Source: Clostridia bacterium (GTDB lineage: Bacteria > Bacillota > Clostridia > Christensenellales > Aristaeellaceae). From it: DNA of 64,000 bases. This document shows, piece by piece, positions 54,191 to 57,023 of this stretch; the stretch's first letter is position 1, and every line of letters begins with the position of its first letter. A program made the position numbers and the translations under genes. Under the pieces are notes generated by a model. The model did not search any database, was not told the DNA's origin, and saw only the letters and a list, made by a program, of their open reading frames with translations. The stretch spans positions 36,845 through 100,844 of the forward strand of contig JAVXND010000002.1 in assembly GCA_036645955.1 (NCBI GenBank). The letters are read 5' to 3'.

Positions 54191-55363
54191 TTAGAAGTAG
54201 GATAGCCGTATGTGCTTGCCCATGCGCTTTAAGCAATCCGCAAGGCTTTGAATGAGCTGCTGTTTAATGCCGAAGGTAATGGGGAGATTTGGGTTTTGGT
54301 GCGCGGGGTTGATGGCACGGCCAACAAAGAAGTTGATATCCGTGGCGTTTTCAAAAAGCTCCTTGGCAATGAGGCTCGCACCATCCTTTTGTGTAATCCA
54401 TTGAGGCACGAGCTTGGCACTATCCAAAAAATCCTCTGCGTAAGCAAGCACCTTGGAAAGGGTGACAACGCCCTCCGTGACCAATTCAACGCCCTCGATT
54501 TCGCTGATGGGCGGAACCTCGGGGTCGGGATAGCTAAGAGAGGCAATCAGCGGCTTTTTGAGATAGCGTGCCACCAAACTGCTTGTGGTGCCGCCGCATA
54601 CTATTCTAGTCCCTTCCTTGGCAAAAAACAAGTTCAACATGCGGGTATCTTGATCCTTGTTTTCAGGGGGACCCACCACCAGGTTCACAGGATGGCGGCT
54701 TCGTACCCTTACCACGGCGATGGTGGTATCATCCCCGGGCTTGCCGCCATAGAGGCGGTTGCATTCGTCGGTGATTAAACCCGCTGTGGATTTGGCGCTG
54801 TTTTCGGCGAGATAGTTGCACATCACATAATCAGCAATGCTGTCGCGTGTCCAGCCAAAGTTGAAGGTTTGACCCACTCCCGCAAATTCAGCGCCATCGC
54901 TCATGGCAATCAAAACATCGTCCACTTCAATTGGGAAAGTGCTTTCCCAAATGGTTTTGCCGGCAATCACGCGCGTTTCCTTTGGGTAATCAAACATTTC
55001 GCCTTTGCGCAGTACAATGGTGGCGGGGTTGTCAAACTGAATAATTTGCGCGGTTCGGTTTTCCTTGATGCTGATAATGGTGAAGGTTGAATATGCCACT
55101 TGGCGCACACTGCATACAGGCAGGGTGCTGGCAATGGTGCTGACGCAGTCCTCAATGGGAATGCCGCCCGAAATCATGGTGCACAAAATTTTGCTGGTGA
55201 GTGTGGAAAGAATGTTGGCTTTTACGCCGCTTCCCAAACCATCGGCTAGTACGAGGGTTAGATTTTCATCTCCGCCGCCGCTCATTTCCACACGATCGCC
55301 GCAGAGGGATTCACCTGATTTGTTCAGGCTGATATAGCCAGTTTCGGTCCATAGATCATTCAT
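54191..55363 (-). CDS. SpoIIE/PP2C-family protein phosphatase with ~165-aa C-terminal domain of unknown function
   Basis: ESLCGDRVE, LVLADGLGSGVKA, AMSDGA and GDDTTIAVVRV (PP2C metal-binding Asp motifs). There is an 8-nt overlap with the upstream hydS-like gene. Confidence 0.85.
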   Translation of the reverse strand: MNDLWTETGYISLNKSGESLCGDRVEMSGGGDENLTLVLADGLGSGVKANILSTLTSKILCTMISGGIPIEDCVSTIASTLPVCSVRQVAYSTFTIISIKENRTAQIIQFDNPATIVLRKGEMFDYPKETRVIAGKTIWESTFPIEVDDVLIAMSDGAEFAGVGQTFNFGWTRDSIADYVMCNYLAENSAKSTAGLITDECNRLYGGKPGDDTTIAVVRVRSRHPVNLVVGPPENKDQDTRMLNLFFAKEGTRIVCGGTTSSLVARYLKKPLIASLSYPDPEVPPISEIEGVELVTEGVVTLSKVLAYAEDFLDSAKLVPQWITQKDGASLIAKELFENATDINFFVGRAINPAHQNPNLPITFGIKQQLIQSLADCLKRMGKHIRLSYF

Positions 55364-57023
55364 GGCTCATCGCATCCTTTAGCTTGGTGAGGGCAATCTT
55401 GGTTTCCGCGGTGGTTTCACCTAGAAGAGAAGCTATTTCTTGCACCACGCGCATTTGCTTATCGATGACCTTGTCGGCGGTTTCAACGGTGCTTCGGCGA
55501 AGCGCCGCGTCCTGCCCGCGCAGGTTTTCGCGTTCGGTCACATCGCGCAGCAGGGAAATAACAATGTGGTATTGATGATCGTACAGTATGGTTTCTTCTA
55601 CAAAGCACTGATATTCAGCTAAATAATGCTCAATGGTAGAGGAGCTGAGCGCAGAGTTGATAATGTTTTGATAGTTTGCGGGGTTTAGGATGCGCACCAC
55701 ATGTTCATGCAAAATATCGGAGGCGGCGGTCAGCTTAAACATGCGCACAGCGGCGCGGTTGATTTGCTGTACAACCAAGTCCTCGTCCATAACAAGAATG
55801 GCGTTGGGGGTGTTGTTGATAATGGTATCGGAGAAGCTTTCCGCCTTTTCTTTTAAAAAGGGCAGGCACATTTCAATTTTGGCTTTTCCTTCTAAAATGG
55901 CAATGGCTTTTTCGCGGCAGGTGGGGTAACCACAGCTTGCGCAGTTGAGTTCTTTGTCGGGCGAGGTTTTGCCCATTTTGAAGAGCATGGCAGAAATGGT
56001 TTCAGAGCCGAACTGCACAGGCTTGCCGCCCAAAAAGGCAAAGGAATGCCCCAAATCACGCGGCGATTCCACTTGATAGCGAAGATCGCCTGCATAGGTA
56101 TCAACGCGCAGCGTGCCCTTCAAGCGGCGCTCGTGATGCTCGCGAATGCAGGGGCCGTTGATACAGCTGCCTTCACAGGCGCTCATTTCGATAAAAACAT
56201 CGCTCATGGTGCCGTTTTCAAGCTCTTCAAACACAGCGCGGCAGTTGTCCACACCATCAATGGCTACGCGGCGATAGCCCTCTACTTTTTCAGTGGCCTT
56301 TAAAATGCCGCCTGTGGCAGGATAAAAGCGCGCTTGCATTCCATTGCCTGAAAGTGTGCGTTCGGCAGGTAAATCAATGTTTTCTTGTGCAAACCAATCC
56401 CGAAGCTCGTCGTAGGTGAGCGCTACATCGGTATAGGGGCTATCGTCCGCTTCGGCTTTTTTGGCAATGCAGGGGCCGATAAAAACGGCGAATGCATCGG
56501 GGTCCTGTTCTTTGATATATTTGCAATGCGCCTGCATAGGCGACAGAACTTTTGCAAGGTAGGGGAGCATGGAGGGATGGTACTTTTGAATCAGCTGATT
56601 AATGGAAGGGCAGCAGCTGGAAATCAGCACGCCTTGTTTTTTGCTCCGCATGATGTGAGCATATTCATCGCTGACCATTTGGGCGCCGATTGCGGTTTCC
56701 TCCACGCGGGAAAAGCCAAGCGCTTTTAAAGCCTTTTCCATTACCGCAAGGGATGAAATGCGGAAATCGGCAATAAAGGAAGGCGCAAGACTGCAAACAA
56801 CATGCTTGCCAGAAGCAATGGCGGCCTTTACGCGCCCAAGATCGCTTCGAACTTGCTTTGCTTTTTGAGGGCAGACCACAAAGCAGCTTCCGCATAAAAT
56901 ACACTCATCATGCACAATTTCGGCGGTGTCGTTGGCAAAGGTGATGGCTTTGACGGAACAAGTACGGATGCATTTATAGCAATCCACACAATTGTTTTTA
57001 TTAAGATTCAGAACTTCAAGCAT
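55356..57023 (-). CDS. hydS: Sensory-type [FeFe]-hydrogenase-like protein with C-terminal Cys4 motif and PAS domain (HydS-like, group C)
   Basis: - N-terminal 2x[4Fe-4S] ([24 protein letters not shown]).
- H-cluster motifs [15 protein letters not shown] and [14 protein letters not shown].
- Then [13 protein letters not shown]...C and a PAS-like region ([25 protein letters not shown]).
- Start is ATG 57023 after AAAGGAG. Confidence 0.8.
   Translation of the reverse strand: [555 protein letters not shown]

Follow-up and report, generated by a model that had tools for sequence, protein, structure and literature searches.

The 64,000-nucleotide stretch of DNA analyzed here (the window) belongs to the genome of a Clostridia bacterium (G000), a 96%-complete draft of 3.24 Mb in 203 contigs, whose closest relatives are metagenome-assembled genomes of Candidatus Limiplasma. 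On its minus strand (55356–57023) the window carries a hydS/hfsB-like gene for a protein of 555 amino acids that is probably the orthologue of Ruminococcus albus HydS and Thermoanaerobacterium HfsB, a putative H2-sensing [FeFe]-hydrogenase of group C (M2f). The assignment is based on the open reading frame and its ribosome-binding site, on Pfam and NCBIfam matches, on the identity with HydS of R. albus 7 and on a Foldseek search with the predicted structure. A preliminary description, made from the DNA letters, had called the protein HydS-like and of the sensory type, with which domain order and family scores agree. The motif strings it quoted were all found in the translations, and their coordinates were derived anew; genes, domains and motifs given below are on the minus strand.

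The gene starts, as described before, with the ATG at 57023: an AGGAG lies 8 nucleotides upstream, and the orthologues, including the annotated protein of R. albus 7, begin there. A longer open reading frame starting at 57065 is unsupported. Group C hydrogenases of the M2f type are composed of two N-terminal [4Fe-4S] clusters, an H-domain, a Cx2Cx4Cx16C motif and a PAS domain (PMC8163306, PMC13104023), and the protein has the same order. Its N-terminal F-domain (56859–57002; 4Fe-4S dicluster domain of Pfam) harbors two Cx2Cx2Cx3C [4Fe-4S] motifs (C12, C15, C18, C22 and C41, C44, C47, C51), the eight cysteines of which are invariant in 33 orthologues, the set in which the invariance of columns was scored and on which the AlphaFold2 model was built. 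The H-domain matches Fe_hyd_lg_C with E = 3.6e-52. Between it and the PAS domain the preliminary description had noticed four additional cysteines; they form the Cx2Cx4Cx16C motif (C361, C364, C369, C386; CASCGYPTC...C; 55866–55943), recognized by PF04060 (E = 1.7e-10; 40.9 bits vs. a cut-off of 23) and invariant in 80 species-level orthologues (48–83% identity), and correspond to the accessory [4Fe-4S] site known from groups C and D (PMC8163306, PMC13104023). The PAS domain (55539–55829; PF00989 with 24.4 bits vs. a cut-off of 22.6, and PF13188) is modeled at residues 408–494 as a five-stranded sheet with helices (predicted score of the local distance difference test, pLDDT, ~80). It is followed by a long C-terminal helix (55365–55538; residues 496–553 of the model, low pLDDT) within which lies the best-conserved stretch of all (residues 517–549, with invariant columns from V519 to K549 in the 33 orthologues). 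A Pfam search with this helix found no family (best E = 0.02); from its conservation it is likely to be an output or docking element.

The family models separate the protein from groups A and B. It scores 97.8 bits with the group A model TIGR02512 (cut-off 405.95) and 210.7 bits with the group B model TIGR04105 (cut-off 450), the latter being the best score obtained for the H-domain, and thus fails both. Group A enzymes have the motifs TSCCPxW, MPCxxKxxE and ExMACxxGCxxGGGQP, from which the protein deviates in L2 and L3. Group B enzymes retain the full proton path and the methionine equivalent to M497 of the hydrogenase CpI and have no PAS domain, whereas here the proton path is incomplete and M497 is replaced. 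From group D (M2e) it differs by its PAS domain, by glycine at the M353 position, where group D has serine or threonine, and by isoleucine after a conserved Gly-Gly, where the group D paralogue in the same genome has glutamate. What it has are the cysteine ligands of the H-cluster, the F-domain, the Cx2Cx4Cx16C motif, the PAS domain and an altered second sphere and proton path, the features of group C. The AlphaFold2 model (mean pLDDT 76; 85–97 in the H-domain) retrieved with Foldseek only [FeFe]-hydrogenases (CbA5H, TkHydA, CpI) with E ~1e-20; the Protein Data Bank holds neither TmHydS nor TamHydS and no solved structure for group C or D.

For the residues around the H-cluster the numbering of CpI is used. 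They were mapped by HMMER alignments to CpI, by an hhalign comparison of the HydS orthologue profile with the HfsD orthologue profile (probability 100%) and with the help of the AlphaFold2 model, in which helix 111–127 is followed by strand 132–134; TmHydS and TamHydS were compared via published residue equivalences (PMC8163306, PMC10055695, PMC11803613) and via the TamHydS-like paralogue of G000. The L1 motif SSCCPS (56604–56621) contains C137, equivalent to the proton-relay cysteine C299, and C138, equivalent to C300, a ligand of [4Fe-4S]H, both invariant in the orthologues. In the L2 motif FIGPCIAKK (56457–56483; HMMER, census) G183 corresponds to M353 and C185 to C355, and in the L3 motif (56148–56189; HMMER, census, orthologues) S281 corresponds to M497 and C283 and C287 to C499 and C503. 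The alignment thus puts the substituted serine before Ala-Cys on M497 and the Cys-Cys pair on C299/C300, as the preliminary description had assumed. Its statement that the pair is retained, unlike in some characterized HydS proteins, also holds; TmHydS and TamHydS have alanine at C299 (A131 and A137, respectively; PMC11803613, PMC10055695). The four cysteines C138, C185, C283 and C287 are kept in 144–147 of the 150 best representative clusters that make up our pocket census and are invariant in the orthologues.

Beyond the first cysteine the proton path is lost. Tyr121 (56661–56663) stands at the position of E279, as judged from hhalign against the group B profile and from helix 111–127 of the model, and tyrosine is found there in 101 of the 150 representatives; I124 is equivalent to E282, and Ala157 (56553–56555; HMMER and hhalign) to S319 and is invariant in the 33 orthologues. 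For R286 the alignments are ambiguous between K128 and Q130. Counting back from C137, which would place D119, A122 and R126 on the path, was rejected because hhalign, MAFFT and the model helix put the indel in the loop 128–131 and hence Y121 and I124 at these positions. Of the earlier suggestion that the proton relay may be intact, therefore, the part concerning its first residue, C299, stands, but E279, E282 and S319 are replaced by Tyr, Ile and Ala. Replacement of M497, proposed as a hallmark of group C, does occur here, but it is not a sharp one, as different residues are found at this position within groups C and D (PMC8163306; our census). The exchange of M353 for glycine, which the preliminary description overlooked, is the more constant change (134 of the 150 representatives).

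The neighboring hydrogenase (hfsD/hydA2-like, 477 amino acids, 52738–54171), the true group B member here (544.5 bits with TIGR04105 vs. the cut-off of 450; 66% identity to HydA2 of R. albus 7), provides an internal comparison. As stated before, both proteins keep the cysteine ligand pattern and differ in L3, with serine vs. methionine at M497. The neighbor has L1 TSSCCPA (53341–53361), L2 FIGPCTAKK (53194–53220) and L3 EGMACVGGCIGGAGC (52843–52887), and thus cysteine at C299, C300, C355, C499 and C503, glutamate at E279 and E282, serine at S319 and methionine at M497; M353 is Gly and R286 is Lys. What distinguishes the two paralogues is thus M497 and the proton path beyond the first cysteine, not M353. 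The F-x-G-P-C form of L2 that both proteins show has been described for the group B enzyme CpIII of Clostridium pasteurianum, where it comprises F266 and G268 (PMC12138974).

These residues bear on the original reading of hfs, in which HydS would be the catalytic subunit of a multi-subunit hydrogenase (HfsA-B-C-D). The invariance of C299 in the 80 orthologues would support real proton transfer, the H-cluster ligands and F-clusters are all present, and the hfs operon was first described as encoding the main H2-evolving hydrogenase (cited in PMC11837493, PMC8924675). Yet tyrosine, isoleucine and alanine occupy the E279, E282 and S319 positions, serine and glycine those of M497 and M353, the protein carries a PAS domain, and its gene is translationally coupled to that of a PP2C phosphatase. 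Moreover, deletion of hfsB in Thermoanaerobacterium saccharolyticum increased rather than decreased hydrogenase activity (PMC5707799), and hfsD expressed alone was sufficient for the phenotype (PMC11837493). We consider a catalytic role very improbable.

The retained cysteine is no peculiarity of the gene in the window. The family is very large: clustering at 90% identity gives at least 8000 groups and clustering at 50% identity 5172 (E ≤ 1e-3). Among the 150 representatives the C299 position is occupied by Cys in 52, Ala in 47 and Ser in 33, and the M497 position by Ser in 45, Asn in 39, Leu in 29 and Met in 16; the commonest C299/M353/M497 triple is Cys/Gly/Ser (22/150). A published survey found cysteine at the C299 position in ~17% of sensory enzymes (PMC10055695). 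In a tree of 133 representatives at least 49 changes were counted at the C299 position, which is therefore evolutionarily labile at depth. In the 80 species-level orthologues Cys299 is found throughout, with Cys/Gly/Ser in 78 and Cys/Gly/Asn in 2. Because this triple prevails in the orthologues and is the commonest among the representatives, retention of the cysteine is the norm of the clade, and, in the sequences compared, the Cys/Gly/Ser pocket is its standard signature.

HydS of R. albus 7 (WP_013483411.1, encoded on plasmid pRUMAL01) shares with the protein 50% identity over the full 555 amino acids, the domain order, the SSCC / FIGPC / EMSAC pocket, the Cx2Cx4Cx16C motif and a near-identical C-terminal helix; L1 reads SSCCHS in R. 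albus and SSCCPS in the window. On pRUMAL01 the order is rex, adhE, phosphotransferase, two 2Fe-2S genes, HydS, SpoIIE phosphatase and HydA2. The gene order from adhE to the HydA2-like gene in the window is the same, that of an R. albus-type hydS-PP2C-hydA2 unit, except that there is one 2Fe-2S gene rather than two and no rex by adhE. Strain KH2T6 of R. albus encodes HydE and HydF, whereas none of the maturases is detectable in the source genome. The hfsABCD genes of T. saccharolyticum encode, by published description, a small iron-sulfur protein, a PAS-hydrogenase, a serine phosphatase and a ferredoxin-linked hydrogenase, the same four-gene logic as here; they are genetically linked to adhE expression (PMC5707799, PMC11837493), but adhE, contiguous with the hydS unit in the window, is not contiguous with hfs in that organism.

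Of the two characterized sensors, TmHydS from Thermotoga maritima (group C, M2f) has G177 at M353 and S267 at M497, as has the protein from the window (PMC8163306, PMC10055695). Its triple is Ala/Gly/Ser, equal save for the cysteine (PMC8163306, PMC11803613). S267 raises the potential of [4Fe-4S]H and is required for activity (PMC10055695), and in the A131C variant the activity is lowered. TamHydS from Thermoanaerobacter mathranii (group D, M2e), a proposed sensor, shares the F-domain, the H-domain and the Cx2Cx4Cx16C cluster but has no PAS domain, A137/S191/L291 at the three positions and a proton path via E252/E289.

The co-directional unit in the window is headed by adhE (58208–60820), encoding a bifunctional aldehyde/alcohol dehydrogenase of 870 amino acids (Pfam) that is found at the same place in R. 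albus 7. Then follow a gene for an APH/kinase-fold protein of 250 amino acids (57434–58186; PF01636, E = 2e-11; "phosphotransferase" at the same pRUMAL01 position), a candidate partner kinase, and an hfsA-like gene for a small thioredoxin-like [2Fe-2S] protein of 80 amino acids (57092–57334; PF01257, E = 6e-8). Downstream of hydS lies the hfsC-like gene for a PP2C/SpoIIE phosphatase of 390 amino acids (54191–55363; PF07228, E = 7e-12), which has a C-terminal domain of ~165 amino acids. Its start and the end of hydS share 8 nucleotides, and the two genes are translationally coupled. The unit ends with the group B hydrogenase gene, 8 nucleotides past the stop codon of which a GC-rich hairpin with a 20-bp stem (52686–52730) is likely to be the bidirectional terminator. 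Synteny was tallied over the 80 loci, counting only loci with room for the gene in question. The PP2C gene is immediately downstream of hydS at 72 of 72 loci, the 2Fe-2S gene upstream at 76 of 77 and a group B gene nearby at 63 of 67; adhE and the kinase-fold gene are found upstream at 31 and 32 of 63 loci, respectively, R. albus included in both tallies. The upstream adhE and kinase-fold genes fit the regulatory connection of HydS/HfsB with adhE that has been proposed.

What can be read from the DNA is a hydrogenase-like, putative sensor module connected with a phosphatase, a kinase-fold protein, adhE and hydA2. We propose that its H-cluster would react slowly with H2, as judged from the published relatives, and that the redox or conformational state of the H-cluster would be relayed via the C-terminal domain, the PAS domain and the terminal helix to the PP2C phosphatase and the kinase; this pair would control how far the group B hydrogenase and AdhE are expressed or how active they are, and the fermentation would thereby shift between H2 plus acetate and ethanol with the build-up of H2. 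In co-cultures of R. albus, removal of H2 by a syntroph lowered the hydA2 transcript level 90-fold and decreased ethanol (PMC10838669), and in five thermophiles the deletion of hfsB led to higher expression of adhE and a higher yield of ethanol (PMC5707799).

Five points weigh against H2 sensing by the HydS-like protein. We know of no target of the phosphatase and kinase pair. Since the cysteine-retaining clade is without a biochemically characterized member, its low turnover and its sensing of H2 are assumed by extrapolation from two proteins with alanine at C299, TmHydS and TamHydS. The absence of Cys299 is usually cited for a non-catalytic role, yet Cys299 is kept here (PMC8924675). The C-terminal cluster of TamHydS is not reduced by H2 (PMC13104023). 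Finally, the installation of the [2Fe] subsite is unproven for this organism because HydE, HydF and HydG went undetected in G000, both in profile searches and in tblastn searches with the proteins of a congener; HypD and a true NifH-like gene were likewise undetected there.

The same three maturases were all undetected in two closed genomes, G039 and G060/G075 (G060 would fit Christensenella sp. MSJ-20), in the near-closed G047, in G076, the closest relative of the window, and in the relative G078. Those relatives without detected maturases that were checked for hydrogenases have three to five intact [FeFe]-hydrogenase genes each. When 61 genomes from the order were drawn (at least 95% completeness), PF02906 genes were found in 57 but HydG in only 13, and in the positive-control genomes all three maturases were found, clustered. 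The HydG model by itself misses cases: in R. albus KH2T6, where HydF and HydE are present, the best HydG match, on another contig, reaches 178 bits vs. a cut-off of 312, for which reason the statements on absence rest on all three families. Between hydF and hydE of this strain (L110, G074:C12:7500-12500) lie three small open reading frames (168, 222 and 223 amino acids), not hydG. In the congener (G010) hydF-hydG-hydE sits between genes whose orthologues in G000 are on contigs C4 and C2; both sites in G000 are contiguous and hold other genes, so a simple assembly gap at these sites is an unlikely cause of the missing hydEFG, although an unassembled copy may exist elsewhere.

The missing maturases suggest a second alternative, namely that HydS uses its [4Fe-4S] clusters to sense the cellular redox state (the ferredoxin pool) and not H2, in a lineage that may lack the [2Fe] subsite, no maturases being encoded. 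That HydE, HydF, HydG and HypD are undetected in G000, and the first three also in the closed relatives G039 and G060, speaks for it, as do the four [4Fe-4S] sites with the small 2Fe-2S partner and the description of HfsB as possibly responsive to redox potential (PMC11837493). But the residues of the [2Fe] pocket (C137, G183, S281, F181) are as conserved as the cysteine ligands in genomes without maturases. The ratio of nonsynonymous to synonymous substitution rates (dN/dS) of hydS is ~0.04–0.11 against four close relatives (with dS saturated) and ~0.06 in the H-domain, the latter a value that is hard to explain if the [2Fe] subsite is never installed; L008, the closest copy in this comparison, is itself from a genome without any of the three maturases. 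G000 is, besides, only a draft. Redox sensing via the [4Fe-4S] clusters therefore appears unlikely to us, and we retain H2 sensing by HydS as the preferred function.

Missing maturases have so far been a topic in archaea and in certain eukaryotes (PMC11216029). Our literature search found no paper on maturase absence in this bacterial order. We tentatively suggest, with more doubt than confidence, that HydS and three sister hydrogenases (of the A3, B and D types), which strong purifying selection maintains in a lineage with neither HydE/HydF/HydG nor a HypFCDE/nitrogenase-like operon, may point to an undescribed bacterial route to the H-cluster or to a function without [2Fe]. Separately, and equally tentatively, the cysteine-retaining clade, with its conserved tyrosine at the E279 position, may differ from both characterized sensors in proton path and sensing kinetics.

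Besides the two hydrogenase genes in the window, G000 has a bifurcating HydABC. Its HydA (G000:C15:12200-13945) has in L1 TSCSPGW..KFCEH, with serine at the position of C300 and an extra cysteine seven residues on; the variant is common to 12 of 12 orthologues from the same genus and has been mentioned for Melainabacteria (PMC3787301). Upstream of hydABC lies the PAS-less group D gene of the TamHydS type (434 amino acids; G000:C15:6416-7720; SSACP / ISPC / EGAAC), which has genes for DRTGG, HATPase_c and PHP domains as its neighbors (region G000:C15:5540-10361). The source genome therefore holds putative sensors of both group C and group D. A further open reading frame of 302 amino acids (G000:C18:27299-28207) encodes an H-domain in degenerate form (HACPQW, VGCPARK, L3 without its cysteine pair) and, judged from these motifs, is unlikely to bind an H-cluster.

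The HydS-like gene is one more member of a very large and known family. The R. albus-type clade to which it belongs has the best physiological support for a sensory role, and since the clade keeps the cysteine and loses the rest of the proton path, the argument from the missing cysteine does not apply to it; much could therefore be learned from one of its members as a third model enzyme, next to TmHydS and TamHydS. The maturase gap, seen in genomes of this gut order that are rich in hydrogenases, bears on the question of whether the H-cluster can also mature in other ways (PMC11216029).

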